NCBI RefSeq assembly: GCF_041886205.1
Contig: NZ_CP169029.1
Length of the DNA: 64,000 bases
Reading direction: 5' to 3' (one strand)
Origin: Escherichia coli
GTDB taxonomy: Bacteria; Pseudomonadota; Gammaproteobacteria; Enterobacterales; Enterobacteriaceae
This document shows, in pieces, positions 6,240 to 57,460 of the stretch. Position numbers and translations under genes: made by a program. Each line of letters begins with the position of its first letter. The first letter of the stretch is position 1. The notes under the pieces are model-generated. The model ran no database searches and was not told where the DNA came from. It saw only the letters and a program-made list of their open reading frames with translations.

Positions 6240-6252
6240 GAGAAAACCAACC

Positions 6253-14511: not shown

Positions 14512-14573
14512 TTCAGATACAGACCAGGCAGTCGATGTCGGGCTGCCTGTATGACTTTAATAAGGACATCATT

Positions 14574-15317: not shown

Positions 15318-15347
15318 CGCACTGACTAACTACGCAGGGATTGCACA

Positions 15348-18538: not shown

Positions 18539-18550
18539 CAGGGATGGTGT

Positions 18551-19147: not shown

Positions 19148-19153
19148 ACGACG

Positions 19154-19726: not shown

Positions 19727-19752
19727 TCTTATTCGTTCTCAAGGATGATGAA

Positions 19753-36116: not shown

Positions 36117-36130
36117 CGGCTCTGGCGGAG

Positions 36131-36166
36131 CTCCCAGGCTCCGCCAGATTTATTTACTTCTGCTGC
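36131..36166. terminator. Bidirectional terminator between convergent speD and yacL (ctggcggagc/gctccgccag), overlapping the yacL stop
   Basis: 10-bp stem hairpin followed by ATTTATTT. Confidence 0.6.
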
Positions 36167-36516
36167 ACGAAATTACGGTAAGCCGCCACGACCTGCAGAA
36201 AATCCTCAACGCCGCATAGCGACAGGCTTTCTTCGTCGTAGTAGTTCATCCCCTCTTCCATTTCATCGCCAGCGAATTCCAGTTGATTGGCGCGAACCAT
36301 CACCTCTTCACCGTCCATCCACAGAGTGTACTCATGCCCTGCCCGTTGCCAGGACCGTTCGCTACCTTTCAGTGCGTGCGCTGCTTGTTCCACTTCATCA
36401 AGCAAGGCCAGGTTTTCTTTCACCTCTTCATTAAACCAGTGCCCGACCACTTCATGCCCCATGGACATACGCACCTTTACCACTCCGGTAATATCGCGCA
36501 GAAATTCGTAATCCAT
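36154..36516 (-). CDS. yacL: UPF0231 family protein YacL
   Basis: ORF 36154..36564; start refined to [11 protein letters not shown] (cat 36514-36516); 120 aa; acidic C-terminal half. Confidence 0.85.
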
Positions 36517-36623
36517 AGTGTGTTCCTCTGCTCCCGGCAATGCGCCGAAATCGCATTGCGCCATTGATGTAATTATCGCAGCCTTACCGGAGAAAAACAG
36601 CGGAACGGCGATGGTTTAGAGAT

Positions 36624-36657
36624 AAAAAAATGCCCGGGAATCTCATTCACCGGGCAT
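36624..36657 (-). terminator. Rho-independent terminator of acnB (tgcccgg/ccgggca with T-run on minus strand)
   Basis: Hairpin followed (minus strand) by TTTTTTT, 35 bp after acnB stop. Confidence 0.75.
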
Positions 36658-36691
36658 TGTGTCGTTTATGCGCAGCGCGTGCGCTTACTTA

Positions 36692-39289: not shown

Positions 39290-39643
39290 GACGGTTCTCC
39301 TCGCTCTCATTGTCATAGTGCGGCAGGCGATTCTCTTCACGCTCCTGTGAGACAGCAGTTTGTAGGGTAAATGCCCAGTACCGCAACGGGCAGAATAGCA
39401 GGATTTTGACGAGGTGTTAATCTGTTTACAAAAAAGCAACATAAAAAAGTGGCTGAATCGTTAAGGATGGTCTAGAGATTGTTTCCCTCCGTAAAAACTT
39501 CGTTAATTCGCATGGTGATAATCACCTTTCTCAACGAATCCCAAGATTAGTCAAAATTTAAACTACCGCCTCTTTATACTCGGATTCACAGCACCTGCGG
39601 GTGGCAGTTCGCCGACCATTGCGATTTCCTTGAGATCCGAATT

Positions 39644-41497
39644 ATGAAAATGACTTTGCCGTTTAAACCCCATGTGCTGGCGCTAATTTGCAGTGCCGGG
39701 CTTTGTGCCGCCTCTACCGGGCTATATATAAAAAGCCGCACAGTGGAAGCGCCTGTGGAACCGCAATCGACACAACTGGCTGTGTCTGACGCTGCCGCGG
39801 TTACGTTTCCTGCAACGGTTTCCGCACCTCCCGTAACACCCGCCGTCGTCAAATCCGCATTCAGCACTGCACAAATAGATCAATGGGTCGCGCCCGTCGC
39901 GCTGTATCCCGACGCCCTACTTTCGCAGGTGCTGATGGCATCAACCTATCCGACAAACGTTGCTCAAGCAGTGCAATGGTCGCACGATAATCCACTTAAA
40001 CAAGGCGATGCTGCTATTCAGGCGGTATCTGACCAGCCGTGGGACGCCAGCGTTAAATCACTGGTGGCCTTTCCACAATTGATGGCATTGATGGGCGAAA
40101 ACCCGCAATGGGTGCAAAACCTGGGCGATGCTTTTCTGGCCCAGCCGCAGGACGTGATGGACTCGGTACAGCGATTGCGGCAACTGGCGCAACAAACCGG
40201 CTCGCTGAAGTCATCAACCGAACAGAAAGTTATTACCACAACGAAGAAAGCTGTACCGGTAAAACAGACAGTCACGGCACCCGTCATACCATCCAATACA
40301 GTTTTAACTGCCAACCCCGTCATTACAGAGCCGGCAACAACCGTCATTTCCATTGAGCCCGCCAATCCTGATGTGGTCTATATTCCCAACTACAACCCAA
40401 CCGTGGTTTACGGGAACTGGGCCAATACTGCGTATCCGCCGGTTTATCTGCCACCACCAGCCGGAGAACCGTTTGTTGACAGCTTTGTACGCGGATTCGG
40501 CTATAGCATGGGCGTTGCTACCACGTACGCACTATTCAGCAGCATCGACTGGGACGACGACGATCATGACCATCATCATCATGACGATGATGATTATCAT
40601 CACCACGATGGCGGTCATCGTGACGGTAATGGCTGGCAACACAACGGCGACAACATCAATATCGACGTCAACAATTTCAACCGTATCACCGGTGAGCATC
40701 TTACTGATAAGAATATGGCATGGCGGCACAATCCAAACTACCGTAATGGTGTGCCCTATCATGATCAGGATATGGCAAAGCGGTTTCATCAAACCGATGT
40801 CAACGGCGGAATGAGCGCCACGCAATTACCTGCCCCAACGCGCGACAGCCAGCGTCAGGCGGCAGCAAATCAGTTTCAGCAACGAACACACGCCGCACCA
40901 GTCATTACACGAGATACCCAACGTCAGGCAGCGGCACAGCGGTTTAATGAAGCTGAACACTATGGGAGCTATGACGACTTCCACGACTTCAGCCGTCGCC
41001 AACCACTGACCCAGCAACAAAAGGACGCCGCTCGTCAGCGTTATCAGTCCGCCTCGCCTGAGCAGCGCCAGGCAGTTCGCGAGAGAATGCAGACTAACCC
41101 GCAGATCCAGCAGCGAAGAGAGGCAGCGCGTGAGCGCATTCAGTCCGCCTCGCCTGAGCAGCGCCAGGCGGTTCGCGAGAAAATGCAGACTAACCCGCAG
41201 AACCAGCAGCGAAGAGACGCAGCGCGTGAGCGTATTCAGTCCGCATCACCAGAGCAGCGCCAGGTGTTTAAGGAAAAAGTACAGCAGCGCCCACTGAATC
41301 AACAGCAACGTGATAACGCCCGCCAGCGTGTTCAATCGGCATCACCTGAACAACGTCAGGTTTTTCGGGAAAAAGTTCAGGAGAGCCGCCCACAACGTCT
41401 AAACGACAGTAACCATACTGTCAGGCTGAATAACGAGCAACGGTCAGCAGTACGCGAACGTCTCTCTGAGCGCGGAGCAAGGCGACTGGAAAGGTAA
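39644..41497 (+). CDS. yacH: Secreted DUF3300-like protein of unknown function with His/Asp-rich tract and C-terminal 32-aa tandem repeats
   Basis: 617-aa ORF with signal peptide; low-complexity DWDDDDHDHHHHDDDDYHHHDGGH; four SASPEQRQ-containing repeats. Confidence 0.85.
   Translation: MKMTLPFKPHVLALICSAGLCAASTGLYIKSRTVEAPVEPQSTQLAVSDAAAVTFPATVSAPPVTPAVVKSAFSTAQIDQWVAPVALYPDALLSQVLMASTYPTNVAQAVQWSHDNPLKQGDAAIQAVSDQPWDASVKSLVAFPQLMALMGENPQWVQNLGDAFLAQPQDVMDSVQRLRQLAQQTGSLKSSTEQKVITTTKKAVPVKQTVTAPVIPSNTVLTANPVITEPATTVISIEPANPDVVYIPNYNPTVVYGNWANTAYPPVYLPPPAGEPFVDSFVRGFGYSMGVATTYALFSSIDWDDDDHDHHHHDDDDYHHHDGGHRDGNGWQHNGDNINIDVNNFNRITGEHLTDKNMAWRHNPNYRNGVPYHDQDMAKRFHQTDVNGGMSATQLPAPTRDSQRQAAANQFQQRTHAAPVITRDTQRQAAAQRFNEAEHYGSYDDFHDFSRRQPLTQQQKDAARQRYQSASPEQRQAVRERMQTNPQIQQRREAARERIQSASPEQRQAVREKMQTNPQNQQRRDAARERIQSASPEQRQVFKEKVQQRPLNQQQRDNARQRVQSASPEQRQVFREKVQESRPQRLNDSNHTVRLNNEQRSAVRERLSERGARRLER
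41030..41413 (+). repeat. Four tandem about 96-bp in-frame repeats inside yacH (first two nearly identical)
   Basis: Direct DNA repeats read from sequence: ...cagtccgcctcgcctgagcagcgccagg(c/g)ggttcgcgaga(g/a)aatgcagactaacccgcag... recurring at about 41031, 41127, 41223, 41319. Confidence 0.85.
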
Positions 41498-41508
41498 ATT
41501 ACAGACGT

Positions 41509-41560
41509 AAAAAAAGCGGCGTGGTTAGCCGCTTTTTTAATTGCCGGATGTTCCGGCAAA
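41509..41560. terminator. Bidirectional terminator region between convergent yacH and lpd (agcggc/gccgct flanked by A- and T-runs, plus second hairpin tgccgg/ccggca)
   Basis: Two hairpins read from sequence; AAAAAAA-stem-loop-TTTTTT architecture. Confidence 0.8.
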
Positions 41561-41567
41561 CGAAAAA

Positions 41568-42992
41568 TTACTTCTTCTTCGCTTTCGGGTTCGGCAGGTC
41601 GGTAATGCTACCTTCGAACACTTCTGCCGCCAGGCCCACAGACTCGTGCAGAGTCGGGTGCGCGTGGATGGTCAGTGCGATGTCTTCAGCATCACAACCC
41701 ATTTCGATTGCCAGACCGATTTCACCCAGCAGCTCACCGCCGTTAGTACCGACAATCGCACCACCGATCACACGGTGAGATTCTTTGTCGAAAATCAGCT
41801 TGGTCATACCGTCTGCGCAGTCGGAAGCGATAGCACGGCCAGAAGCAGCCCACGGGAAGGTGGCGGTCTCAAAGCTGATGCCTTTCTCTTTCGCTTCTTT
41901 CTCAGTCAGACCTACCCATGCAACTTCTGGTTCGGTATAGGCGATGGACGGGATAACTTTCGGATCGAAGTAATGTTTTTTACCGGCGATAACTTCAGCG
42001 GCAACGTGACCTTCGTGAACACCTTTATGTGCCAGCATTGGCTGACCGACGATATCGCCGATAGCAAAGATGTGCGGTACGTTGGTACGCAGTTGTTTGT
42101 CAACGCGGATGAAACCACGGTCGTCAACTTCCACGCCAGCTTTGCCTGCGTCGAGGTTTTTACCGTTCGGCACACGACCAATCGCTACCAGCACGGCGTC
42201 GTAACGCTGCGGTTCAGCGGGTGCTTTTTTGCCTTCCATCGTCACATAAATGCCGTCTTCTTTCGCTTCAACGGCGGTAACTTTGGTTTCCAGCATCAGG
42301 TTGAATTTCTTGCTGATACGCTTGGTGAAGACTTTAACGATGTCTTTGTCAGCTGCCGGGATAACCTGGTCGAACATTTCAACCACGTCAATCTGTGAAC
42401 CCAGCGCGTGGTAAACGGTGCCCATTTCCAGACCGATGATACCGCCACCCATTACCAGCAGGCGTTCTGGTACTTCTTTCAGTTCCAGCGCGTCAGTGGA
42501 GTCCCAGATACGCGGATCTTCATGCGGAATAAACGGCAGTTGGATCGGGCGAGAACCCGCTGCAATGATCGCGTTGTCGAAGTTGATCACGGTTTTACCG
42601 TTCTCACCTTCAACTTCCAGGGTGTTAGCCCCGGTGAATTTACCCAGACCGTTGACCACTTTGACTTTGCGGCCTTTCGCCATACCAGCCAGACCACCGG
42701 TCAGCTGATTGATCACTTTCTCTTTCCAGGTACGAATCTTGTCGATATCGGTTTTCGGTTCGCCGAAGACGATACCATGTTCAGCCAGCGCTTTGGCTTC
42801 TTCGATAACTTTTGCTACGTGCAGCAGTGCTTTAGAAGGGATACAGCCGACGTTCAGGCAAACACCGCCAAGGGTGTTGTAACGTTCTACGATTACGGTT
42901 TCCAGACCTAAATCAGCGCAACGGAAGGCAGCGGAGTAACCTGCGGGGCCTGCCCCAAGTACCACGACCTGAGTTTTGATTTCAGTACTCAT
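41568..42992 (-). CDS. lpd: Dihydrolipoyl dehydrogenase (E3 of PDH/OGDH/GCV)
   Basis: ORF 41568..43025; start refined to MSTEIKTQVVVLGAGPAGY (cat 42990-42992); redox CLNVGC; 474 aa. Confidence 0.96.
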   Translation of the reverse strand: MSTEIKTQVVVLGAGPAGYSAAFRCADLGLETVIVERYNTLGGVCLNVGCIPSKALLHVAKVIEEAKALAEHGIVFGEPKTDIDKIRTWKEKVINQLTGGLAGMAKGRKVKVVNGLGKFTGANTLEVEGENGKTVINFDNAIIAAGSRPIQLPFIPHEDPRIWDSTDALELKEVPERLLVMGGGIIGLEMGTVYHALGSQIDVVEMFDQVIPAADKDIVKVFTKRISKKFNLMLETKVTAVEAKEDGIYVTMEGKKAPAEPQRYDAVLVAIGRVPNGKNLDAGKAGVEVDDRGFIRVDKQLRTNVPHIFAIGDIVGQPMLAHKGVHEGHVAAEVIAGKKHYFDPKVIPSIAYTEPEVAWVGLTEKEAKEKGISFETATFPWAASGRAIASDCADGMTKLIFDKESHRVIGGAIVGTNGGELLGEIGLAIEMGCDAEDIALTIHAHPTLHESVGLAAEVFEGSITDLPNPKAKKK

Positions 42993-43039
42993 CATGACCT
43001 CTATATATTTATCTCCGGCGGTCATACCCGTCGTCTTTC

Positions 43040-43135
43040 AGGCCGCAGCGGCGTTAGCTTCACGCCCTCACCCCAGTCACTTACTTATGTAAGCTCCTGG
43101 GGATTCTGGCGCTTGCTACCTTGCTGCACCCAGAA
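43040..43135. repeat. ERIC/IRU element (inverse orientation relative to the panC copy) between aceF and lpd
   Basis: CCCTCACCCCAGTCACTTACTTATGTAAGCTCCTGGGGATTC is the reverse complement of the ERIC core. Confidence 0.8.
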
Positions 43136-43316
43136 ATCCATAGGGTATGTGAAGTAATACCCTAACCACCACCGGGTCGTTCTATCCGTCGGTATTTTAC
43201 AAAATTGTTAACAATTTTTAAACAACAAACGGCAACCGATTTGTCTATTCGCTAATAACCTCAATACATTCATGAGATTACCAGAAAAAAGCCGGCCGTT
43301 TGGCCGGCTCTTTTAC

Positions 43317-45209
43317 TTACATCACCAGGCGGCGAATGTCAGACAGCGTGTTGTTAATGATGGTAATGAAACGGGCACCATCAGCACCGTCGATCACGCG
43401 GTGGTCGAAGGAGAGAGAAATCGGCAGCATCAGACGCGGCACGAACTCTTTACCATTCCACACCGGCTCCATCGCGGACTTGGAAACGCCGAGGATAGCC
43501 ACTTCCGGCGCGTTCACAATCGGCGCGAAGTGGGTAGTACCCAGGCCGCCGATGCTGGAGATGGTGAAGCAACCGCCCTGCATTTCGCCCGCAGTCAGCT
43601 TACCGTCACGCGCTTTCTTAGAAATAGTCATCAGCTCGCGAGACAGCTCGATGATGCCTTTCTTGTTGACGTCTTTGAATACCGGAACAACCAGACCGTT
43701 CGGGGTATCCACCGCCACACCGATGTTGATGTACTTCTTCAGGGTCAGACGCTGACCGTCTTCCGACAGCGAACTGTTGAAGCGAGGCATCTGCTCAAGA
43801 GCTGCAGCAACGGCTTTCATGATGAAGACAACCGGGGTTATCTTCACATCCAGCTTACGTTTCGCCGCTTCTTCGTTCTGCTGTTTACGGAACGCTTCCA
43901 GCTCGGTGATATCGGTTTTGTCGAAGTGAGTAACATGCGGGATCATCACCCAGTTACGGCTCAGGTTCGCCCCAGAGATTTTCTGGATACGGCCCAGTTC
44001 CACTTCTTCGATTTCACCAAACTTGCTAAAGTCCACCTTCGGCCACGGCAGCATGCCTGGGATACCGCCGCCAGTCGCCGCCGGAGCTGCTTCTGCACGT
44101 TTGATAGCTTCTTTCACGTAAGCCTGAACGTCTTCGCGCAGGATACGACCTTTACGGCCAGTGCCCTTCACTTTCGCCAGGTTAACGCCAAACTCGCGTG
44201 CCAGACGGCGGATCAGCGGAGTCGCGTGAACGTAAGCGTCGTTTTCAGCAAATTCAGATTTGCCTTCCGCTTTTGCAGCCGGAGCTGCTGCCGGGGCTTC
44301 AGCTTTTGCTGCCGGAGCCGGCGCTGCCGCTTCCTGTTTCGCAGGAGCTGCAGCAGGCGCTGCGCCTTCAACTTCGAAGATCATAATCAGCGAACCAGTT
44401 TTCACTTTATCGCCAACGTTGACTTTCAGTTCCTTCACGACGCCTGCAAACGGAGCCGGAACTTCCATAGACGCTTTATCGCCTTCTACGGTGATCAGTG
44501 ACTGTTCAGCGGCAACTTTGTCGCCCACTTTCACCATCACTTCGGTGACTTCAACTTCGTCACCGCCGATATCCGGAACGTTAACTTCTTTCACGCCAGC
44601 TGCTGGTGCAGGAGCCGCTGCCGGAGCCGCTTCCTGTTTAGCCGCCGGAGCTGCCGCGCCTGCTTCACCCGCGACTTCGAAGACCATAATCAGCGAGCCG
44701 GTAGACACTTTGTCACCCACGTTCACTTTGATCTCTTTCACGGTGCCAGCAAACGGAGCCGGAACTTCCATAGAAGCCTTGTCGCCTTCTACGGTGATCA
44801 GCGACTGTTCAGCTTCAACTTTATCGCCAACTTTCACCAGGATTTCGGTCACTTCAACTTCGTCGCTGCCGATATCCGGAACGTTAACGTCTTTTGCCGC
44901 TGCAGCCGCTGGTGCTGCTGCCGGAGCTGCTTCTTTCTTCTCTTCTGCCTGAGCAGGTGCAGCGTCTGCTGCACCGTCGGCGGAATCGAAAATCATAATC
45001 AGTGCGCCGGTCTGGGTTTTATCGCCAACAGAGACTTTGATCTCTTTAACAATACCCGCCTGCGGAGACGGAACTTCCATAGAGGCTTTGTCGCCTTCTA
45101 CGGTGATCAGCGACTGTTCGGCTTCAACTTTGTCGCCCACTTTGACCAGGATCTCGGTGATTTCAACTTCATCAGCCCCGATGTCCGGTACTTTGATTTC
45201 GATAGCCAT
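43317..45209 (-). CDS. aceF: Pyruvate dehydrogenase E2 (dihydrolipoamide acetyltransferase) with three lipoyl domains
   Basis: 630-aa ORF; three repeated lipoyl domains (…[10 protein letters not shown]…) separated by Ala/Pro-rich linkers; catalytic DHRxxDG. Confidence 0.96.
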
Positions 45210-45223
45210 TATTCTTTTACCTC

Positions 45224-47887
45224 TTACGCCAGACGCGGGTTAACTTTATCTGCATCGATGTTGAATTTGGCGATTGCGTCAGCAACCACTTTCTTATCGA
45301 TTTCGCCACGTTTAGCCAGTTCGCCCAGCGCCGCTACAACCACGTAGGAAGCATCAACTTCGAAGTGGTGACGCAGGTTCTCACGGCTGTCGGAACGACC
45401 GAAGCCATCAGTACCCAGTACGCGGTAGTCGTCAGCCGGTACGTAAGTACGGACCTGCTCAGCGAACAGTTTCATATAGTCGGTAGATGCCACTGCCGGA
45501 GCGTCGTTCATCACCTGAGCGATATACGGAACGCGCGGAGTTTCCAGCGGGTGCAGCATGTTCCAGCGTTCACAATCCTGACCATCACGCGCCAGCTCGG
45601 TGAAGGAGGTCACGCTATAAACGTCAGAACCTACGCCGTAATCTTTCGCCAGGATCTCTGCCGCTTCACGGACGTGACGCAGGATAGAACCGGAGCCCAG
45701 CAGCTGAACTTTACCTTTGCTACCTTCAATGGTTTCGAGTTTGTAGATACCTTTACGGATACCTTCCTCAGCACCTTCCGGCATTGCCGGCATGTGATAG
45801 TTTTCGTTCAGCGTGGTGATGTAGTAGTAAACGTTCTCTTGTTTTTCACCGTACATACGCTCCAGACCGTCATGCATGATGACAGCAACTTCGTAAGCGT
45901 AAGCCGGGTCGTAAGAGATACAGTTCGGGATAGTCAGCGACTGAATGTGGCTGTGACCATCTTCGTGCTGCAGACCTTCGCCGTTCAGGGTGGTACGACC
46001 GGAAGTACCGCCGATCAGGAAGCCACGCGCTTGCTGGTCGCCAGCCGCCCAGCACAGATCGCCAATACGCTGGAAGCCGAACATCGAGTAATAGATGTAG
46101 AACGGAATCATCGGCAGATTGTTGGTGCTGTAAGAGGTCGCCGCTGCCAGCCAGGAACAACCTGCGCCCAGCTCGTTGATCCCTTCCTGCAGAATCTGAC
46201 CTTTCTCGTCTTCTTTATAGTAAGCAACCTGCTCGCGGTCCTGCGGGGTGTACTGCTGACCGTTCGGGCTGTAAATACCAATCTGACGGAACAGACCTTC
46301 CATACCGAAAGTACGCGCTTCGTCGGCGATGATCGGTACCAGACGATCTTTGATCGACTTGTTCTTCAGCATCACGTTCAGAGCACGAACGAAAGCGATA
46401 GTGGTAGAGATCTCTTTGCTCTGCTCTTCCAACAGCGCGCCGAAGTCTTGCAGGCTCGGCAGCTCAAGCTTCTCGGTGAAGTTCGGCTGACGGCTTGGCA
46501 GATAACCGTGCAGTTTCTGACGCTGAGCGTGCAGATAGGTATGCTCTTCAGAACCTTCCGGGAAGGTGATGTACGGCAATTTTTCGATATCTGCATCAGA
46601 CACCGGCACATTGAAACGGTCGCGGATATGACGCACACCGTCCATGTTCATTTTCTTAACCTGGTGCGCGATGTTTTTACCTTCAGCCGCGTCGCCCATG
46701 CCGTAACCTTTAATGGTATGAGCAAGGATTACTGTCGCTTTGCCTTTGGTTTCCTGCGCTTTCTTGAATGCAGCGTAGATTTTCTTCGGATCGTGACCAC
46801 CACGGTTCAGTGCCCAGATCTGCTCGTCAGTCCAGTCTGCAACCAGTGCTGCGGTTTCAGGATATTTACCGAAGAAGTGTTCACGAACGTACGCACCATC
46901 TTTCGATTTGAAGGTCTGGTAGTCGCCGTCAACGGTTTCGTTCATCAGCTGGATCAGTTTACCGCTGGTATCCTTACGCAGCAGTTCATCCCAACGGCTA
47001 CCCCACATCACTTTGATCACGTTCCAGCCAGCACCTTCGAAGATGCCTTCCAGTTCGTTGATGATCTTGCCGTTACCGGTGACCGGGCCGTCAAGACGCT
47101 GCAGGTTACAGTTGATAACGAAGACCAGGTTATCCAGTTTTTCACGGGTAGCGATGGTGATCGCACCTTTGGATTCCGGTTCGTCCATTTCACCGTCACC
47201 GAGGAACGCGTAAACGGTTTGTTTAGAGGTATCTTTCAGGCCACGGTGTTCCAGATATTTCAGGAATTTAGCCTGGTAAATAGCACCAATCGGACCCAGA
47301 CCCATAGATACGGTCGGGAACTGCCAGAATTCCGGCATCAGTTTCGGGTGCGGATAGGAAGAGAGGCCATTGCCGTGAACTTCCTGACGGAAGTTATCCA
47401 GCTGCTCCTGAGTCAGACGACCTTCCAGGAAAGCACGAGCGTAAACGCCCGGGGAGATGTGGCCCTGGAAGTAAACCAGGTCGCCGCCATCCTGCTCGTT
47501 GCGTGCACGGAAGAAGTGGTTAAAGCACACATCATAAATGGTTGCGGAAGACTGGAAGGACGCCATATGGCCGCCCAGTTCGAGGTCTTTTTTCGACGCA
47601 CGCAGAACCGTCATGATGGCGTTCCAGCGGATAGCTGAACGAATACGGCGTTCCAGTTCCAGATTACCCGGATACTCCGGTTGTTCTTCAACGGGGATGG
47701 TGTTGATGTAGTTGCTGATACCGGTGCCTGCGGCTACGTTTACACCGCCTTTGCGGGCTTCAGCAAGCAGTTGGTCGATCAGATACTGAGCACGCTCAAC
47801 ACCTTCTTCACGGATGACCGATTCGATCGCCTGGAGCCAGTCGCGAGTTTCGATCGGATCCACGTCATTTGGGAAACGTTCTGACAT
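45224..47887 (-). CDS. aceE: Pyruvate dehydrogenase E1 component
   Basis: 887-aa [26 protein letters not shown]. Confidence 0.96.
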
Positions 47888-48047
47888 GGGTTATTCCTTA
47901 TCTATCTAATAACGTTGAGTTTTCTGGAACCTGTCCCATTGAACTCTCGCCGGAAAGCTCAATAAGACAGGTTCTACGTTTAGTTGCCGCGCTTTTATAT
48001 GCGCTTGATTTACAACATCTTCTGGATAATTTTTACCAGAAAAATCA

Positions 48048-48812
48048 CTAATTCTTTCGTTGCTCCAGACGACGCAGAGAACGCTCACGGCGGCTTTCTT
48101 CACGGCTTCTGTCGAGCAAAATTTCTTCGATAAAGGCCAGATGGCGATGCGATGCTTCGCGCGCTTCTTCCGGCTTACCGGCCATAATCGCTTCAAATAT
48201 GCGGGTGCGGTGACTACTCACCAGCGGCAGCATCTCGCGACGCGAATAGAGCAATTCGAAGTTCTGGCGGACATTCTGGGCCAACATCGGCTCCATACAC
48301 CTTAGCAGATGAAGCAGAACCACATTGTGGGCCGCTTCAGTGACAGCAATCTGATACTGGAGTACGGCGTTTGATTCCGCGTCCAGATCGCCAGACTGCT
48401 GCGCCAGTTCTATGGCGTGATGGAGTTCACGGATGCGTTCCTTGTCTTCATCGGTACTACGCAGCGCGGCGTAATAAGCGGCGATACCTTCCAGGGCGTG
48501 TCGTGTTTCGAGCAAGTCATACTGTGACTCAGGATGGTCGGAGAGCAGCTCCACCAGCGGATCGCTGAAGCTTTGCCATAGGCTGCTCTGGACAAAAGTG
48601 CCGCCACCCTGGCGACGAAGCAACAAGCCCTTCGCTTCGAGACGTTGAATCGCCTCACGCAAGGAGGGACGGGAGACGTCAAACTGTTTTGCCAGTTCGC
48701 GTTCCGGTGGGAGTTTTTCGCCCGGGCGGAGAGTGCCTTCGAGGATCAAAAACTCCAGTTGCTGCTCAATCACATCGGAGAGTTTTGGTTGGCGGATTTT
48801 GCTGTAGGCCAT
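48048..48812 (-). CDS. pdhR: Pyruvate dehydrogenase complex repressor (GntR family)
   Basis: ORF 48048..48845; start refined to [17 protein letters not shown] (cat 48810-48812); [28 protein letters not shown]; 254 aa. Confidence 0.94.
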
Positions 48813-48843
48813 GAGTTCCTGTCTTAAGCCACTTGCCGAAGTC

Positions 48844-48860
48844 AATTGGTCTTACCAATT
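48844..48860 (-). promoter_or_regulatory. PdhR operator (perfect palindrome AATTGGTCTTACCAATT) in pdhR promoter/leader
   Basis: Matches recalled PdhR box consensus ATTGGTnnnACCAAT; 32 bp upstream of pdhR start. Confidence 0.8.
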
Positions 48861-49352
48861 TCATGTCTGTGACGCTAAAGTAACAAAGTATTCACCTTAT
48901 GTCCATACAGGTTTTGATTGAAATCATGAAACTGTGCACATTTTAACAACTTGACATATATAACGTTTCAAAGTTGTAACTATGCACAAATGTAGACTTT
49001 ACGTAGGAAAGGAGTTTTTTAACGATTATTAAACTATAAAAATCCGAATTGAACCGATTCACTTACCAATTTTGTGATTTTTAATTCAATTAAAACGAAT
49101 TTAAATTCATTCTACATATTGAGAGGGGTTGAGGCTGAGCTTTACAAACGGTTTCTTTTTAAGCAACTCATCTTCAACCATGCATAAAGCGGGTGCATTC
49201 GCTGCCGCATACCATTATTCTTGATCTGACGGAAGTCTTTTTGTAACAATTCAAACTTCTTTGATGTAAACAAATTAATACAACAAACGGAATTGCAAAC
49301 TTACACACGCATCACTGCGTAGATCAAAAAAACAACCACCGCACGAGGTTTC

Positions 49353-50726
49353 ATGATGGAAGGTCAACAGCACGGCGAGCAGCTAAAGCGCGGCCTTAAA
49401 AACCGCCATATTCAGCTTATCGCGCTGGGTGGCGCGATAGGGACCGGGTTATTCCTGGGTAGCGCCTCCGTAATACAGTCCGCAGGGCCAGGGATTATCC
49501 TGGGTTACGCCATTGCTGGTTTTATCGCCTTTCTGATCATGCGTCAGCTGGGTGAAATGGTGGTCGAAGAACCTGTCGCAGGCTCCTTTAGCCACTTTGC
49601 TTATAAATACTGGGGCAGTTTTGCCGGTTTCGCCTCTGGCTGGAACTACTGGGTACTGTACGTTTTAGTTGCCATGGCAGAGCTGACTGCCGTGGGTAAA
49701 TACATTCAGTTCTGGTATCCGGAAATCCCAACCTGGGTTTCTGCCGCCGTATTCTTTGTGGTGATTAACGCCATCAACCTGACCAACGTTAAAGTGTTTG
49801 GCGAGATGGAGTTCTGGTTTGCCATTATCAAAGTTATTGCGGTAGTAGCGATGATCATCTTCGGCGGCTGGCTGCTGTTCAGTGGCAACGGCGGCCCGCA
49901 GGCGAGCGTTAGCAACCTGTGGGATCAAGGTGGTTTCCTGCCGCACGGCTTCACCGGACTGGTGATGATGATGGCGATTATCATGTTCTCGTTCGGTGGT
50001 CTGGAACTGGTGGGGATCACCGCAGCAGAAGCTGATAACCCGGAGCAAAGTATCCCGAAAGCAACTAACCAGGTTATCTACCGCATCCTGATTTTCTATA
50101 TTGGTTCGTTAGCCGTTCTGCTCTCACTGATGCCGTGGACCCGCGTTACCGCCGATACCAGTCCGTTTGTGCTGATCTTCCACGAGTTAGGCGATACCTT
50201 TGTGGCGAATGCGCTGAACATCGTGGTACTGACTGCGGCGCTCTCCGTGTACAACAGCTGCGTATATTGCAACAGCCGTATGCTGTTTGGTCTGGCACAA
50301 CAGGGTAATGCGCCAAAAGCGCTGGCGTCTGTCGATAAACGTGGTGTACCAGTAAATACCATTCTGGTGTCTGCACTGGTAACGGCGTTGTGCGTACTGA
50401 TTAACTACCTTGCCCCAGAGTCCGCTTTCGGACTGTTAATGGCGCTGGTGGTATCTGCACTGGTAATCAACTGGGCGATGATTAGCCTGGCGCATATGAA
50501 ATTCCGTCGCGCCAAGCAGGAACAAGGCGTGGTAACTCGCTTCCCTGCTCTGCTTTATCCGCTGGGTAACTGGATCTGCCTGCTGTTTATGGCGGCGGTA
50601 CTGGTGATTATGCTGATGACCCCAGGAATGGCGATTTCGGTATACCTGATCCCGGTATGGCTGATCGTGTTAGGTATCGGCTATCTGTTTAAAGAGAAAA
50701 CCGCCAAAGCCGTAAAAGCGCATTAA
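49353..50726 (+). CDS. aroP: Aromatic amino acid:H+ symporter (APC family)
   Basis: 457-aa ORF MMEGQQHGEQLKRGLKNRHIQLIALGGAIGTGLF. Confidence 0.95.
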   Translation: MMEGQQHGEQLKRGLKNRHIQLIALGGAIGTGLFLGSASVIQSAGPGIILGYAIAGFIAFLIMRQLGEMVVEEPVAGSFSHFAYKYWGSFAGFASGWNYWVLYVLVAMAELTAVGKYIQFWYPEIPTWVSAAVFFVVINAINLTNVKVFGEMEFWFAIIKVIAVVAMIIFGGWLLFSGNGGPQASVSNLWDQGGFLPHGFTGLVMMMAIIMFSFGGLELVGITAAEADNPEQSIPKATNQVIYRILIFYIGSLAVLLSLMPWTRVTADTSPFVLIFHELGDTFVANALNIVVLTAALSVYNSCVYCNSRMLFGLAQQGNAPKALASVDKRGVPVNTILVSALVTALCVLINYLAPESAFGLLMALVVSALVINWAMISLAHMKFRRAKQEQGVVTRFPALLYPLGNWICLLFMAAVLVIMLMTPGMAISVYLIPVWLIVLGIGYLFKEKTAKAVKAH

Positions 50727-52198: not shown

Positions 52199-53152
<954 letters not shown>

Positions 53153-53354
53153 TTGCTGGCAGATTTATCCGCTCCATCGCGGGCGGATAATCTCCCCTTC
53201 CCCAACTTTCTTCGTAACGCCTCGCAAATTTCTTGTCTTTCGCTGCAACGAAATAAAAAACCTCGGAAGCTGCTTTCCCGTTTCGTTTTTTGCCCCTCGC
53301 TTGTGCCGATGGCGTTTGCCAAAGTAGCGCCAACCAAATCAAGGAGCGAAACAG

Positions 53355-53795
53355 ATGGACAAGCAACGCGGTTTTACACTTATCGAACTGATGGTGGTTA
53401 TTGGCATCATTGCCATTTTAAGCGCCATTGGTATTCCCGCTTATCAAAACTACCTGCGCAAAGCTGCACTCACCGACATGCTACAAACCTTTGTGCCTTA
53501 CCGTACCGCCGTAGAGTTGTGCGCGCTGGAACATGGTGGATTAGATACCTGCGACGGTGGCAGCAATGGCATTCCCTCGCCTACCACCACCCGCTATGTT
53601 TCAGCCATGAGTGTGGCAAAGGGCGTGGTGTCGCTGACCGGGCAAGAAAGTCTCAATGGGCTAAGCGTCGTCATGACGCCAGGTTGGGATAACGCAAACG
53701 GCGTCACCGGCTGGGCGCGCAACTGCAATATCCAAAGTGACAGCGCATTGCAGCAAGCCTGCGAAGATGTCTTCCGCTTTGATGACGCCAACTAA
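53355..53795 (+). CDS. ppdD: Type IV prepilin (major pilin-like protein)
   Basis: 146-aa ORF with class III leader MDKQRGFTLIELMVVIGIIAIL (G-F cleavage/methylation motif). Confidence 0.93.
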   Translation: MDKQRGFTLIELMVVIGIIAILSAIGIPAYQNYLRKAALTDMLQTFVPYRTAVELCALEHGGLDTCDGGSNGIPSPTTTRYVSAMSVAKGVVSLTGQESLNGLSVVMTPGWDNANGVTGWARNCNIQSDSALQQACEDVFRFDDAN

Positions 53796-53804
53796 GGAGC
53801 GGCA

Positions 53805-55190
53805 ATGAATATTCCACAGCTCACGGCCCTGTGCCTGCGTTATCAGGGAGTCTTGCTGGATGCCAGCGAAGAAGTGGTTCATGTTGCGGTGGTCGATGCC
53901 CCCTCACATGAGTTGCTGGACGCATTGCATTTCGCTACCACCAAACGTATTGAGATCACCTGCTGGACGCGCCAACAAATGGAAGGTCACGCCAGTCGCA
54001 CACAACAGACATTGCCCGTAGCTGTTCAGGAGAAGCATCAGCCCAAAGCAGAGTTGCTGACTCGAACGTTACAATCTGCGCTGGAACAACGCGCGTCTGA
54101 TATTCATATCGAACCAGCGGACAATGCCTACCGCATCCGCTTGCGTATCGACGGCGTATTGCATCCTTTACCGGATGTTTCACCGGATGCCGGAGTCGCA
54201 TTAACCGCCAGATTAAAAGTGCTGGGAAACCTGGATATTGCGGAACATCGCCTGCCGCAGGACGGGCAATTCACTGTCGAACTGGCAGGAAACGCCGTCT
54301 CATTTCGTATTGCGACCTTACCATGTCGGGGTGGTGAAAAGGTGGTATTAAGGTTGTTACAGCAGGTGAGCCAGGCACTGGATGTCAACACGCTTGGAAT
54401 GCAGCCGTTACAACTGGCGGACTTTGCTCATGCCTTGCAACAACCACAGGGACTGGTGCTGGTAACTGGCCCTACAGGCAGCGGCAAAACGGTCACGCTT
54501 TATAGTGCCCTGCAAACGCTGAATACCGCTGACATTAATATTTGTAGCGTCGAAGATCCGGTTGAGATCCCCATAGCCGGACTAAACCAGACGCAAATCC
54601 ATCCGCGTGCCGGACTCACCTTTCAGGGCGTGTTGCGTGCGTTATTGCGCCAGGATCCTGACGTCATCATGATCGGAGAGATCCGCGATGGCGAAACAGC
54701 AGAGATCGCTATTAAAGCGGCGCAAACTGGTCACCTGGTGTTGTCTACCCTACACACTAATTCCACCTGCGAAACGCTGGTACGTTTACAGCAAATGGGG
54801 GTCGCCCGCTGGATGCTATCATCGGCGCTTACGCTGGTAATAGCCCAGCGTCTGGTACGCAAACTTTGCCCACATTGTCGCCGGCAGCAAGGGGAGCCCA
54901 TCCACATTCCAGACAATGTATGGCCATCGCCGCTGCCCCACTGGCAGGCACCCGGTTGTATACATTGCTACCACGGTTTTTATGGTCGTACGGCCTTATT
55001 TGAAGTTCTGCCCATAACGCCGGTCATTCGTCAGCTTATTTCCGCTAATACCGACGTTGAATCGCTGGAAACGCACGCACGACAGGCGGGTATGCGTACG
55101 CTTTTTGAAAACGGCTGCCTGGCCGTAGAGCAAGGCTTAACCACCTTTGAAGAGTTAATCCGCGTACTGGGGATGCCGCATGGCGAGTAA
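53805..55190 (+). CDS. hofB: Type IV pilus assembly ATPase (GspE/PilB family)
   Basis: 461-aa ORF; Walker A GPTGSGKT; tetracysteine CPHC...CxxC motif. Confidence 0.92.
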   Translation: MNIPQLTALCLRYQGVLLDASEEVVHVAVVDAPSHELLDALHFATTKRIEITCWTRQQMEGHASRTQQTLPVAVQEKHQPKAELLTRTLQSALEQRASDIHIEPADNAYRIRLRIDGVLHPLPDVSPDAGVALTARLKVLGNLDIAEHRLPQDGQFTVELAGNAVSFRIATLPCRGGEKVVLRLLQQVSQALDVNTLGMQPLQLADFAHALQQPQGLVLVTGPTGSGKTVTLYSALQTLNTADINICSVEDPVEIPIAGLNQTQIHPRAGLTFQGVLRALLRQDPDVIMIGEIRDGETAEIAIKAAQTGHLVLSTLHTNSTCETLVRLQQMGVARWMLSSALTLVIAQRLVRKLCPHCRRQQGEPIHIPDNVWPSPLPHWQAPGCIHCYHGFYGRTALFEVLPITPVIRQLISANTDVESLETHARQAGMRTLFENGCLAVEQGLTTFEELIRVLGMPHGE

Positions 55191-56382
55191 GCAACTCTGG
55201 CGCTGGCATGGCATAACCGGCGACGGCAATGCGCAAGATGGGATGCTATGGGCAGAGAGCCGTACTTTACTGCTTATGGCACTACAGCAACAGATGGTTA
55301 CCCCACTAAGCCTGAAGCGAATCGCCATCAATTCTGCGCAGTGGCGAGGAGATAAAAGCGCGGAAGTCATTCATCAACTGGCGACGCTACTCAAAGCCGG
55401 GTTAACGCTTTCTGAAGGGCTGGCACTGCTGGCGGAACAGCATCCCAGTAAGCAATGGCAAGCGTTGCTGCAATCGCTGGCGCACGATCTCGAACAGGGC
55501 ATTGCCTTTTCCAATGCCTTATTACCCTGGTCAGAGGTATTTCCGCCGCTCTATCAGGCGATGATCCGCACGGGTGAACTGACCGGTAAGCTGGATGAAT
55601 GCTGCTTTGAACTGGCGCATCAGCAAAAAGCCCAGCGTCAGTTGACCGACAAAGTGAAATCAGCGTTGCGTTATCCCATCATCATTTTAGCGATGGCAAT
55701 CATGGTGGTTGTGGCAATGCTGCATTTTGTTCTGCCGGAGTTTGCCGCTATCTATAAGACCTTCAACACCCCACTACCGGCACTAACGCAGGGGATCATG
55801 ACGCTGGCAGACTTTAGTGGCGAATGGGGCTGGCTGCTGGTGTTGTTCGGCTTTCTGCTGGCGATAGCCAATAAGTTGCTGATGCGCCGCCCGACCTGGC
55901 TTATCGCGCGGCAGAAATTGCTGTTACGCATCCCGATTATGGGTTCACTGATGAGGGGACAAAAACTCACGCAGATCTTTACGATTCTGGCGCTGACACA
56001 AAGTGCAGGCATTACTTTTTTACAGGGCGTAGAGAGCGTCAGAGAAACAATGCGCTGCCCGTACTGGATGCAACTTCTGACACAAATCCAGCACGATATC
56101 AGTAACGGTCATCCCATCTGGCTGGCGCTAAAAAATACCGGTGAGTTTAGCCCGCTCTGTTTGCAATTAGTGAGAACAGGAGAGGCATCCGGCTCGCTGG
56201 ACCTCATGTTAGACAACCTCGCCCATCATCATCGGGATAACACAATGGCGCTGGCGGATAACCTCGCAGCCTTACTGGAACCGGCGTTGCTGATCATAAC
56301 GGGAGGAATTATCGGTACGCTGGTGGTGGCAATGTATCTGCCAATTTTCCATTTAGGCGATGCGATGAGTGGGATGGGATAA
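55180..56382 (+). CDS. hofC: Type IV pilus inner-membrane platform protein (GspF/PilC family)
   Basis: 400-aa ORF overlapping hofB end by 11 nt; polytopic. Confidence 0.9.
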   Translation: MASKQLWRWHGITGDGNAQDGMLWAESRTLLLMALQQQMVTPLSLKRIAINSAQWRGDKSAEVIHQLATLLKAGLTLSEGLALLAEQHPSKQWQALLQSLAHDLEQGIAFSNALLPWSEVFPPLYQAMIRTGELTGKLDECCFELAHQQKAQRQLTDKVKSALRYPIIILAMAIMVVVAMLHFVLPEFAAIYKTFNTPLPALTQGIMTLADFSGEWGWLLVLFGFLLAIANKLLMRRPTWLIARQKLLLRIPIMGSLMRGQKLTQIFTILALTQSAGITFLQGVESVRETMRCPYWMQLLTQIQHDISNGHPIWLALKNTGEFSPLCLQLVRTGEASGSLDLMLDNLAHHHRDNTMALADNLAALLEPALLIITGGIIGTLVVAMYLPIFHLGDAMSGMG

Positions 56383-56409
56383 CGCTGGCGTGTTGCTCCA
56401 CGCCAGCGT
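56382..56409. terminator. Bidirectional terminator hairpin between convergent hofC and guaC (acgctggcgtg/cacgccagcgt)
   Basis: 11-bp stem read from sequence. Confidence 0.65.
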
Positions 56410-56416
56410 TGGGAGA

Positions 56417-57460
56417 TTAAAGGTTGTTGAAAATGCGGTTTTCTTGTTCCAGCACACGAATAAACGTGGTGCGCTTGGTCAGCTCTTTCAGGCGTGAAGC
56501 CCCAACGTATGTACAAGCTGAACGCAGGCCGCCCAAAATATCACGCGCGGTATTTTCAACCGGGCCTCGCAGCGGCAGCTTAACGGTTTTACCTTCTGCT
56601 GCGCGATATTCCGCAACGCCGCCAACGTGACGTTTCATCGCAGACTCGGAGCTCATGCCGTAGAACAGCATAAATTTCTCGCCGTTCTCCTCAACGATGC
56701 GACCGCCGCTCTCTTCGTGGCCCGCCAGCATGCCGCCAAGCATGACGAAATCGGCACCGCCGCCAAAGGCTTTCGCCACATCGCCCGGCGTGGTGCAGCC
56801 ACCATCGCTGACGATCATTCCGCCCAGACCGTGCGCAGCATCGGCACATTCGATTACCGCAGAAAGTTGCGGATAACCGACGCCTGTTTTGACGCGAGTT
56901 GTACAAACAGAACCTGGGCCAATGCCAACTTTAACGATATCGGCACCTGAGAGGATAAGCTCCTCACACATTTCACCAGTCACTACGTTACCAGCACAAA
57001 TGGTTTTGGTCGGCCACGCTTCACGCGCTTTCGCAACGAACTGCACGAAGTGTTCGGAATAACCATTCGCCACGTCAATACAAACGAAGTTTAATGCCGG
57101 GTTCAGGTCGAGAATCTGTTTAGTTTTTTCGAAATCCGCATCAGACGTACCGGTAGAAACCATCACATGTTTCAGCACATCAGCGGAAGAATTGTTGATA
57201 AACGCTTGCCACTCTTCGACAGAATAGTGTTTATGCACAGCAGTCAAAATATCAAAAGAAGCCAGCGCAGAGGCCATAGAAAATGTGCCTACGGTGTCCA
57301 TATTTGCGGCGATAATCGGCACGCCGGACCAGCTCTGACCTGAATGTTTGAAGGTGAATTGACGTTCCAGTTCAACATCGGAACGGCTTTTAAGAGTGGA
57401 GCGTTTAGGGCGGATGAGAACGTCTTTAAAACCTAACTTCAGATCTTCTTCAATACGCAT
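56417..57460 (-). CDS. guaC: GMP reductase
   Basis: 347-aa [24 protein letters not shown]; IMPDH/GMPR TIM-barrel motifs. Confidence 0.96.

Follow-up and report, generated by a model that had tools for sequence, protein, structure and literature searches.

An intact ppdD-hofB-hofC type IVa pilus operon on an Escherichia coli chromosome, with conserved blocks upstream of the pilin gene

Described systems and the identity of the locus

The competence operon of Haemophilus carries the prepilin peptidase gene pilD in cis. In Haemophilus influenzae pilABCD, as in the ppdD-hofB-hofC operon of Escherichia coli, a CRP-S promoter that requires Sxy drives the pilin, ATPase and platform genes as one transcript, and the products are used for DNA uptake (PMC1635313); in E. 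coli, however, the peptidase is unlinked, DNA uptake is barely detectable, and the ppdD CRP-S site is asymmetric whereas the Haemophilus sites are palindromic. The pilA-pilB-pilC systems of Pseudomonas, Myxococcus, Geobacter and Thermus likewise combine a class III pilin, an ATPase with PilB-type motifs and a PilC-type platform. They differ from the locus described here in that it has no adjacent pilD, an unusually conserved pilin with a second disulfide, and CRP-S/Sxy control. The ATPase, platform and (pseudo)pilin families are also homologous to GspE, GspF and GspG of type II secretion systems, with which the prepilin peptidase GspO is held in common, but ppdD-hofB-hofC comes without GspC, GspL or GspM and without an adjacent secretin, and its filament is a true pilus. 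For the E. coli system itself the solved pilin structure, the assembly requirements and the regulation by CRP and Sxy have already been published.

The window analysed here, by which we mean the whole 64-kb stretch of DNA, is E. coli chromosome and is collinear with strain 6EVA across 64 kb at 99.96% identity. Window-wide annotation was transferred from 6EVA on this basis, and the annotation of the operon was taken from a RefSeq record identical across a 3.6-kb query (Table 1). The locus is almost certainly the well-studied ppdD-hofB-hofC (hcpABC) operon, which encodes the core module of the enterobacterial type IVa pilus: it has the same position, gene order, gene lengths and flanks as K-12 ppdD-hofB-hofC (b0108-b0106) and EHEC hcpABC (hemorrhagic coli pilus), and PpdD, HofB and HofC all exceed the curated cut-offs of their own NCBIfam equivalogs. 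It is intact, ordinary and already known. Eleven amino acid substitutions set it apart from K-12 (PpdD T121A; HofB H14Q, G189S, K238T and V386I; HofC R147H, S217G, V243A, V297M, Q311H and E353D); none of them removes a motif residue, with HofB V386I lying inside the second CxxC. An unusual allele, suggested by the fact that only 86 genomes match at 99% identity or more, was considered and dropped, since per-gene nucleotide identity to K-12 is an ordinary 98.7-98.9%.

Table 1. Positions of the genes and non-coding elements at the locus, numbered from the first letter of the window
Feature	Positions	Strand	Description
nadC	52259..53152	+	upstream flank, outside the operon; annotated in the identical record
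hairpin after nadC stop	53158..53196	+	likely nadC terminator remnant, without T-run in E. coli
CRP-S (Sxy-dependent CRP) site TTCTTCGTAACGCCTCGCAAAT	53208..53229	+	identity to K-12, positional conservation
block CTGCAAC	53243..53249	+	candidate -35 of a class I CRP-S promoter
block CGGAAG..TTTCCC	53264..53279	+	conserved (alignment), common to the ppdA upstream region
T-run + GCCCCTCGC	53286..53300	+	best-conserved leader/promoter block
TGcCAAAGT	53317..53325	+	extended -10-like block, candidate alternative core promoter
ppdD Shine-Dalgarno AAGGAG	53341..53346	+	read from the sequence; conserved in alignment
ppdD (hcpA)	53355..53795	+	major type IVa prepilin, 146 aa, 6-residue leader
hofB (hcpB)	53805..55190	+	PilB/GspE-family assembly ATPase, 461 aa
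hofC (hcpC)	55180..56382	+	PilC/GspF-family inner-membrane platform, 400 aa
GC-rich hairpin at convergent hofC/guaC 3' ends	56380..56411		folds; no U-tract
guaC	56417..57460	-	downstream convergent flank, outside the operon

The three genes are closely packed. A gap of 9 nt separates ppdD from hofB, with an AAGGAG Shine-Dalgarno sequence spanning the ppdD stop codon ahead of hofB, and the hofB and hofC frames overlap by 11 nt. The flanking nadC is 98.99% identical in nucleotide sequence to its K-12 counterpart; its longest ORF begins at 52217, as against the annotated start at 52259. Most of this agrees with a preliminary description of the locus. The coordinates, strand and identities that it gave for ppdD, hofB and hofC are correct to the base (ORFs, Pfam and NCBIfam), the overlap of hofB with hofC and the flanking nadC and convergent guaC were recovered, and all motifs named for its minimal type IV pilus core of prepilin, GspE-type ATPase and GspF-type platform could be located. 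Furthermore, its reading of the three frames as free of frameshifts and premature stops was borne out upon translation of the window, which gave three intact ORFs without internal stops.

The claim of a terminator shared by hofC and guaC fared less well. The 34-nt spacer between the two genes does contain a perfect GC-rich hairpin of 12-13 bp (z = -3.0 on the plus strand and -5.5 on the minus strand) that is common to both 3' ends, and its GCTGGCGC..GCGCCAGC stem is kept, with compensatory changes, in Escherichia, Citrobacter, Enterobacter, Pseudocitrobacter, Leclercia, Kluyvera and Cedecea. However, no U-tract follows the hairpin on either the plus strand (GGGAGAUUAA) or the minus strand (AUCCCAUCCC), and likewise in other genera; it was passed over by the terminator scan and does not qualify as an intrinsic bidirectional terminator. 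The conserved shared hairpin stands, while termination of hofC and guaC at this element is something that we infer from it.

Pilus assembly, unlinked partner genes and biological role

PpdD was read from the start as a class III prepilin with a G/F cleavage motif, and its N-terminus, MDKQRG/FTLIE, indeed places G at -1, F at +1 and E at +5. The leader is short and basic and is followed by a hydrophobic alpha1-N helix (MDKQRG/FTLIELMVVIGIIAIL), as in class III signal peptides. PpdD scores 268.7 bits against NF007862 (cut-off 138) and 39.9 bits against the N_methyl domain (21.2), and TIGR02532 matches as well. In its mature form it is identical at 140 of 140 residues to the EHEC pilin in the cryo-EM pilus structure PDB 6GV9. 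The enterobacterial T4aP subclass has been defined by two disulfides together with H54; PpdD has H54 and both disulfide pairs, Cys56, Cys66, Cys124 and Cys136 of the precursor corresponding to C50-C60 and C118-C130 of the mature protein.

Neither a prepilin peptidase nor a secretin is present anywhere in the 64-kb window, going by the annotation transferred from 6EVA, so that the preliminary description was right to report none in cis. Its further proposal, that function depends on unlinked genes, is supported by 6EVA, which serves as a proxy genome given its match to the window and in which the partners are encoded away from the operon. The search for these partners recovered gspO, which encodes an A24 prepilin peptidase, and an intact hofMNOPQ, and crp, gntX and dprA are present too. 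Among complete E. coli genomes hofMNOPQ occurs in 5425 of 5426, as does ppdAB-ygdB-ppdC, and the same count holds for sxy. The minor pilin gene ygdB carries an internal stop in 6EVA that is private to that genome.

Judging from published work on K-12 and EHEC, for whose genes filament assembly has been shown, processing, assembly and DNA uptake in this strain would proceed as follows. PpdD would be made as a prepilin, from which an unlinked prepilin peptidase (GspO or PppA) would cut off the 6-residue leader. HofB, a predicted hexameric Zn-binding ATPase, would then act via the polytopic HofC platform, pulling pilin from the inner membrane and polymerising the pilus. The three genes are probably translationally coupled, through the 9-nt gap with its Shine-Dalgarno sequence over the ppdD stop codon and through the 11-nt hofB/hofC overlap. 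Transcription would be shut down in ordinary culture, since the promoter would require both cAMP-CRP on its weak, asymmetric CRP-S site (53208-53229) and the co-activator Sxy/TfoX, of which scarcely any would be made. Once induced, the machine would support low-level DNA uptake and could form adhesive pili. In the published work, pili have been reconstituted from 13 genes of this system, and E. coli takes up DNA in a sxy-induced, hofQ-dependent manner, at a very low level.

The natural role of the system, be it DNA uptake, nutrition or adhesion, is debated. The main function of the same genes might be that of an adhesive or virulence pilus (hemorrhagic coli pilus, HCP), their membership of the competence regulon being secondary; we regard this as possible, if on the unlikely side. 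On minimal casein medium EHEC forms pili of PpdD, which have been reported to promote adherence and invasion and to induce cytokines (PMC2920817, PMC2649431); the pilin encoded in the window is identical to that EHEC pilin. In addition, a UPEC hofQ mutant has been published as colonising the kidney poorly, and a 2026 CRISPRi placental-barrier screen picked up ppdD and hofB. Yet the sole demonstrated regulator is the competence co-activator Sxy, and it is DNA uptake that has been demonstrated upon sxy induction, with a requirement for hofQ. Surface-exposed adhesive pilins under host or phage pressure are not known to be more conserved than their assembly proteins; PpdD, unlike them, is. The adhesive and DNA-uptake roles are not mutually exclusive.

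Selection on the operon and the family of its ATPase and platform

The operon had been called cryptic and normally silent under laboratory conditions. Its silence is well supported: all of 72 ECOR strains were negative for PpdD (PMC3330819), and a scan of the region found no consensus sigma-70 promoter. The label itself is appropriate as far as this silence goes, but not if it is taken to mean decay, since dN/dS is 0.05-0.13 and function once induced has been published. We find that the operon, silent as it is in the laboratory, is under strong purifying selection and is not decaying. It is present in 5423 of 5426 complete E. coli genomes, and comparison with E. albertii and with a divergent E. 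coli gave dN/dS values of 0.05 for ppdD, 0.07 for hofB and 0.07-0.13 for hofC. Conservation is higher in the pilin than in the proteins that assemble it. Translation of five loci revealed no internal stops in the operon ORFs, and the order ampD-nadC-ppdD-hofB-hofC-guaC-coaE is largely kept in 26 Enterobacterales loci ranging from Escherichia to Yersinia and Edwardsiella.

These observations contradict the notion of an evolutionary relic, silent, unselected and on its way to becoming a set of pseudogenes, which we consider very improbable. Absence of expression in standard culture and in the 72 ECOR strains would agree with a relic, as would the lack of a consensus sigma-70 promoter, the faster evolution of HofB and HofC relative to the flanking housekeeping genes, and the broken partner gene ygdB in the closest genome, 6EVA. 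The ygdB stop, however, is confined to that one genome, and a relic would fit neither the low dN/dS, the intact ORFs of the five loci and the largely conserved gene order, nor the near-universal presence of the operon (5423/5426), nor a regulatory region that is conserved block by block.

HofB and HofC carry the motifs and domains of a pilus motor and its platform. HofB has a Walker A motif (GPTGSGKT at 222), an Asp box (DPVE at 251), a Walker B motif (VIMIGEIRD at 287), a His box (GHLVLSTLH at 309) and a tetracysteine Zn motif (CPHC at 355 and CIHC at 385), in line with its initial reading as a GspE-type ATPase with Walker A and tetracysteine motifs. It scores 823.5 bits against NF007755 (cut-off 617), and its T2SSE domain is matched with E = 6e-147 (Pfam). 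The closest solved homologues are PilB (5ZFR, 6OLJ and 5TSG), with PilB structures at E = 6e-105. HofB is nevertheless short, at 461 aa compared with about 566-588 aa for PilB: its alignment to solved PilB begins only at about residue 75, the N-terminal region gives a weak MshEN match only, and its score against the PilB equivalog stays under the cut-off (487 vs 676). HofC consists of two T2SSF stretches (PF00482, E = 2.5e-57), the duplicated domain of the GspF-type platform for which it had been taken; it scores 663 bits against NF007861 (cut-off 401), and among solved structures Myxococcus PilC in 3JC8 is its closest homologue.

The assignment of hofB and hofC to a type II secretion system, which might be drawn from the RefSeq/PGAP product name of hofB ('type II secretion system protein GspE'), from the T2SSE and T2SSF Pfam domains common to both kinds of machine and from GspE structures scoring nearly as high as PilB structures against HofB, is scarcely credible, because HofB, HofC and PpdD stay below the GspE (TIGR02533, 457 bits vs a cut-off of 630), GspF (TIGR02120, 270 vs 424) and GspG (TIGR01710, 29 vs 89) equivalogs, the neighbours are nadC and guaC and not gspC, gspD or gspG-M, the real gsp operon is located elsewhere, the first gene encodes the pilin of a solved type IV pilus, and the published pilus reconstitution employs Hof and Ppd parts.

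The regulatory region upstream of ppdD

A CRP-S scan of the region upstream of ppdD (53160-53354), which had been put forward as a check, revealed a site at 53208-53229 that is identical to the K-12 site. Read on the minus strand (ATTTGCGAGGCGTTACGAAGAA), its promoter-proximal half T4G5C6G7A8, which is TCGCA at 53222-53226 on the plus strand, is perfect while the distal half is degenerate; this is the composition of the CRP-S regulon motif (a TGCGA C6 half-site plus a degenerate second half), and CRP-S sites of E. coli have been described as having the same asymmetry between half-sites (PMC6728893). Eleven of the 22 nt (GCCTCGCAAAT) are shared with the sxy promoter's dissected CRP-S site. Six nucleotide differences from K-12 are found in the nadC-ppdD spacer, all of them outside the CRP-S site, and the best CRP-S-like 22-mer keeps a position 141-150 nt upstream of the ATG in about 21 of the 27 Enterobacterales sequences compared. 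In K-12, CRP binds a ppdD fragment, and Sxy induces expression 90-fold, an effect abolished in crp and cyaA mutants (PMC1635313); the primers of the published K-12 EMSA fragment map to 53141-53271 of the window, enclosing the site. The TGCGA-N6-TCGCA pattern, allowing up to two mismatches, matches 30 times in the window, where chance alone would give 44.9, and the 16-mer is thus not significant. Because the pattern alone is uninformative, we accept the site only on its positional conservation and on the published binding and induction in K-12. By analogy with K-12 and EHEC, Sxy would be expected to induce the operon in this particular strain as well.

The core promoter is less clear. A sigma-70 promoter scan of 52900-56700 returned no sites (3.1 expected), so it cannot be assigned in this way; Rfam at a permissive threshold found no RNA family in the same interval, and no mapped transcription start for ppdD emerged from the literature searched. 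The hairpin that follows the nadC stop folds at -18.8 kcal/mol (z = -2.85), and in Enterobacter-like, Kluyvera and Yersinia loci an equivalent hairpin with a T-run abuts CRP-S.

Several blocks downstream of the CRP-S site are conserved in sequence and spacing. The distance from the CRP-S centre to CTGCAAC is 23.5-24.5 nt in most Enterobacteriaceae loci, in Yersinia and in Serratia plymuthica, and the block recurs at the same offset upstream of ppdA. The CGGAAG..TTTCCC block forms no stable hairpin (fold z = +0.35); a candidate weak -10, GAAGCT (53266-53271), lies within it. GGAAG..CTTCC plus T-run (53264-53292) was also considered as a 5' attenuator or as the nadC terminator and was rejected, its fold being no better than that of shuffled sequences (z = +0.35). 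The conservation of the T-run and GCCCCTCGC emerges from an alignment of 25 Enterobacterales upstream regions, and a similar TTTTTTTCTCCTCGC is found upstream of ppdA. Finally, in all 16 loci, from Escherichia to Cedecea, whose HofB is at least 59% identical to that of the window, the CRP-S centre is followed at 100.5-102.5 nt by a TGnCAnAGT-like motif; most of these 16 keep the other promoter blocks besides this spacing. In E. coli the whole stretch from CRP-S through CGGAAG recurs upstream of ppdA, an unlinked minor-pilin operon, and the geometry common to ppdD and ppdA is absent from the hofM and gntX upstream regions.

Two promoter geometries would fit the conserved blocks: with CTGCAA as the -35 element, CRP-S would be centred near -61, and with TGcCAAAGT as an extended -10 it would be centred near -113.5. 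By eye, sigma-54, sigma-32, sigma-E and sigma-28 promoters and sites for PurR, TyrR, RcsB or a second CRP gave no convincing fit to the blocks. It is conceivable, though we think it doubtful, that the four blocks at fixed spacing (CTGCAAC, CGGAAG..TTTCCC, T-run + GCCCCTCGC and TGnCAnAGT) are elements for another regulator, or for an atypical promoter layout, that works together with Sxy or downstream of it.

As the re-identification of a textbook E. coli locus, this result changes nothing by itself; the value of the locus is as a clean positive control for reading coordinates, motifs and context from raw sequence. Of interest to the specialist are the strong purifying selection on an operon that is silent in the laboratory and a pilin that is more conserved than its motor. 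Altogether, the rigidly spaced promoter blocks, some of them common to ppdA, offer targets for mutagenesis on the question of the natural switch, and, if they are indeed extra promoter elements, they could explain the lack of a known natural inducer of the E. coli competence pilus.

Gene content and identity of the ppdD-hofB-hofC operon

By megablast, window positions 53000-56600 matched 5424 of 5426 complete E. coli genomes, with at least 80% of the query covered in 5423 and several genomes 100% identical. The matched genomes are annotated nadC, ppdD, gspE (= hofB), hofC and guaC, which bears out the nadC and guaC flanks assigned in the preliminary description. The ppdD-hofB-hofC operon is an already known feature. 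Its genes share 98.7-98.9% nucleotide identity with K-12, and the amino-acid changes (one in PpdD, four in HofB, six in HofC) leave all motif residues intact. Strain 6EVA, the closest complete genome, matches the final 25 kb of the window at 100% identity and is collinear with the entire 64 kb (26 mismatches, no gaps). Annotation transferred from 6EVA places two features unrelated to the type IV pilus elsewhere in the window: a seven-gene yad-type chaperone-usher fimbrial operon in the panB-folK interval (~13939-20973, - strand), and the recombination-promoting nuclease gene rpnC between panD and panC (~23040-23936).

Features of the operon and its flanking spacers (window coordinates)
Feature	Coordinates	Strand	Remarks
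CRP-S site	53208-53229		TTCTTCGTAACGCCTCGCAAAT; four converging lines of evidence
CTGCAAC block	53243-53249		23.5-24.5 nt from CRP-S centre in 15/16 loci
CGGAAG..TTTCCC block	53264-53279		next after CTGCAA
T-run + GCCCCTCGC block	53286-53300		next after CGGAAG..TTTCCC
TGnCAnAGT-like motif	53317-53325		100.5-102.5 nt from CRP-S centre in 16/16 loci
ppdD	53355-53795	+	146 aa; ORF list
hofB	53805-55190	+	461 aa; ORF list
hofC	55180-56382	+	400 aa; ORF list
GC-rich hairpin	56380-56411	both	12-13 bp; 34-nt hofC/guaC spacer plus hofC stop codon

The coordinates first proposed for the operon agree exactly with the ORF list, where the three genes are co-directional on the + strand, and direct translation revealed no frameshift or premature stop: all three genes run from ATG to TAA without internal stops. 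An AAGGAG spans the ppdD stop codon, within the 9-nt ppdD-hofB gap, and the hofB and hofC frames overlap, as described, by 11 nt (ATGGCGAGTAA). For nadC, the longest ORF starts at 52217 and the RefSeq/K-12 annotation at 52259, the mechanical ORF list over-extending the gene by 14 codons. PpdD carries the class III prepilin leader with its G/F cleavage motif (MDKQRG/FTLIE) and matches Pfam N_methyl; HofB, a T2SSE protein (E = 6e-147), has the Walker A (GPTGSGKT at 222), Asp box (DPVE at 251), Walker B (VIMIGEIRD at 287), His box (GHLVLSTLH at 309) and two CxxC pairs (CPHC at 355, CIHC at 385) of a GspE-type ATPase with a tetracysteine motif; and HofC is a GspF-type platform protein with a duplicated T2SSF domain. 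Each product passed its own NCBIfam equivalog (PpdD 268.7 bits, cut-off 138; HofB 823.5, cut-off 617; HofC 663, cut-off 401), while matches of the three to the PilB, GspE, GspF and GspG equivalogs all fell below cut-off. The solved structures nearest HofB are the PilB assembly ATPases 5ZFR, 6OLJ and 5TSG, followed by GspE and, far behind, PilT; the nearest to HofC is Myxococcus PilC. Mature PpdD is identical at 140/140 residues to the pilin of the EHEC pilus cryo-EM structure 6GV9, and its four cysteines form two disulfides, C50-C60 and C118-C130, the defining pair of the enterobacterial T4aP subclass. Altogether, the original observation is confirmed and its interpretation supported.

Conservation of the operon and of its 3' end

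The operon is not decaying. Across 26 loci of Enterobacterales, ranging from Escherichia to Yersinia, Edwardsiella and Pantoea, the order ampD-nadC-ppdD-hofB-hofC-guaC-coaE is largely kept, and the five loci that we translated contain no internal stops. Nei-Gojobori dN/dS values against E. albertii and divergent E. coli were 0.05 for ppdD, 0.07 for hofB and 0.07-0.13 for hofC; all three genes are under purifying selection. Against Citrobacter werkmanii, identity was 92% for PpdD, 77% for HofB and 68% for HofC (flanking genes 91-94%), and across the comparison loci (L007-L035 and L065) HofC dN was 3-5 times as high as PpdD dN for most genera. The pilin is thus the best conserved of the three products, an unusual rate order for a type IV pilus; surface-exposed adhesive pilins show the opposite pattern, and the conservation of PpdD fits a rarely displayed filament. 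In Escherichia sp. ESNIH1 and Pseudescherichia vulneris (L020 and L021, match from 3501) the HofB match begins only at query residue 57-58, and therefore the short N-terminal MshEN-like region is absent or too diverged; the upstream genes nadC and ampD are missing as well from L021.

The 3' ends of hofC and guaC share a conserved structure. Folding energies of the hairpin are -28.5 kcal/mol for the + strand (z = -3.0) and -23.9 kcal/mol for the - strand (z = -5.5). Its GCTGGCGC..GCGCCAGC stem is kept, with compensatory changes (e.g. CAGGCGC/GCGCCTG) and loops that vary, in Escherichia, Citrobacter, Enterobacter, Pseudocitrobacter, Leclercia, Kluyvera and Cedecea. Of the shared terminator originally proposed, the GC-rich hairpin common to both 3' ends therefore stands; because in all seven genera both strands lack a U-tract after it, and the terminator scan did not call it, we only infer terminator action, as against stabilisation of the 3' ends or a stop that Rho assists. 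Inserts of 144-277 nt take the place of the short hairpin spacer in Yersinia nurmii (L031 ~6185-6415; a tandem heptamer array, TTTGGCG ~10x), Dickeya undicola (L024; repeated TGACTATGTTTCA units) and Tatumella morbirosei (L028).

Partner genes and published function

As first described, no prepilin peptidase or secretin lies in cis: annotation transferred from 6EVA gave no A24 peptidase or secretin across the 64-kb window. Elsewhere, 6EVA carries hofMNOPQ, gspO, crp, gntX, dprA and the minor-pilin operon ppdAB-ygdB-ppdC; hofMNOPQ, ppdAB-ygdB-ppdC and sxy were each found in 5425/5426 E. coli genomes. The 6EVA ygdB (L089 6149-6556, - strand, outside the window) is interrupted by a stop at codon 92, which appears private to 6EVA since all other records fall short of 100% identity across the operon. 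If the source of the window, which differs from 6EVA at 26 positions, had this stop, pilus priming would be impossible. Also outside the window, the 6EVA T2SS gspF (L006 8587-9784) is annotated as frameshifted, with gspO intact at that operon's end, and a degenerate type III secretion cluster (L089 ~36000-49700) has several frameshifted or stop-containing genes. Within the window, 19 kb from the pilus operon, yacC (33987-34334, +) encodes a 115-aa PulS/OutS-family pilotin-like lipoprotein (PF09691, E = 2.5e-9), an orphan with no secretin nearby.

Upon sxy induction, processed 15-kDa PpdD appears (PMC3330819) and low-level, hofQ-dependent DNA uptake occurs, and a construct with hofBC, hofMNOPQ, ppdAB-ygdB-ppdC and gspO assembles PpdD pili. 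Since the genes are nearly identical to those studied, PpdD processing, DNA uptake and pilus assembly would be expected in this strain as well. EHEC produces PpdD pili (HCP) with adhesive and inflammatory properties (PMC2920817, PMC2649431), and ppdD and hofB scored as hits in a 2026 CRISPRi placental-barrier screen.

The CRP-S site and the ppdD upstream region

The proposed laboratory silence is documented by failed earlier attempts to detect the ppdD transcript (PMC1635313) and by PpdD production in 0/72 ECOR strains (PMC3330819). A CRP-S (Sxy-dependent CRP) scan had been suggested for 53160-53354; pattern search alone was uninformative (30 matches in the window, 44.9 expected), and four lines of evidence converge on the site tabulated here. 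First, CRP shifts a K-12 ppdD upstream fragment in EMSA (PMC1635313) whose primers map to 53141-53271; this site, identical in K-12, is the sole good candidate inside. Second, its promoter-proximal half is a perfect TGCGA (- strand reading) and its distal half degenerate, an asymmetry described for E. coli CRP-S sites (PMC6728893); it shares 11/22 nt with the dissected sxy-promoter site. Third, in ~21/27 orthologous Enterobacterales sequences the top CRP-S-like 22-mer begins 141-150 nt before the ppdD ATG (~5% expected by chance for a 10-nt window), also in genera where the rest of the spacer cannot be aligned, such as Serratia, Yersinia, Edwardsiella, Brenneria and Dickeya. Fourth, K-12 ppdD is induced 90-fold by Sxy in qPCR, an effect lost without CRP or cAMP (PMC1635313). 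A sigma-70 promoter scan of the operon region found none, consistent with an activator-dependent promoter.

Conservation in the nadC-ppdD spacer extends beyond this site: in the 16 nearest loci (Escherichia to Cedecea), four rigidly spaced blocks lie in the stretch from the CRP-S site to the ppdD Shine-Dalgarno (53243-53329). The unlinked E. coli ppdA operon has an upstream region (L089 7578-7710, - strand) that aligns significantly with that of ppdD from the CRP-S site to CGGAAG.TGC (local score 37 versus 17.7 ± 2.9 for shuffled sequences, with 0/1000 shuffles reaching 37) and likewise has a T-run + CTCCTCGC block. Folding ruled out a stable hairpin at the GGAAG/CTTCC element, and Rfam gave no match in the ppdD upstream region. 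A hairpin 3' of the nadC stop codon (53158-53196) lacks a T-run in E. coli. On sequence grounds, the blocks would fit a class I promoter (-35 CTGCAA, -10 GAAGCT, start near 53279, CRP-S at ~-61), in agreement with the view of CRP-S promoters as class I (PMC6728893). They would also fit an extended -10 promoter (TGcCAAAGT, start near 53332, CRP-S at ~-113.5); our literature search found no mapped ppdD transcription start. This rigidly spaced putative promoter architecture, partly common to ppdA, is the sole loose thread of the operon that deserves specialist attention.
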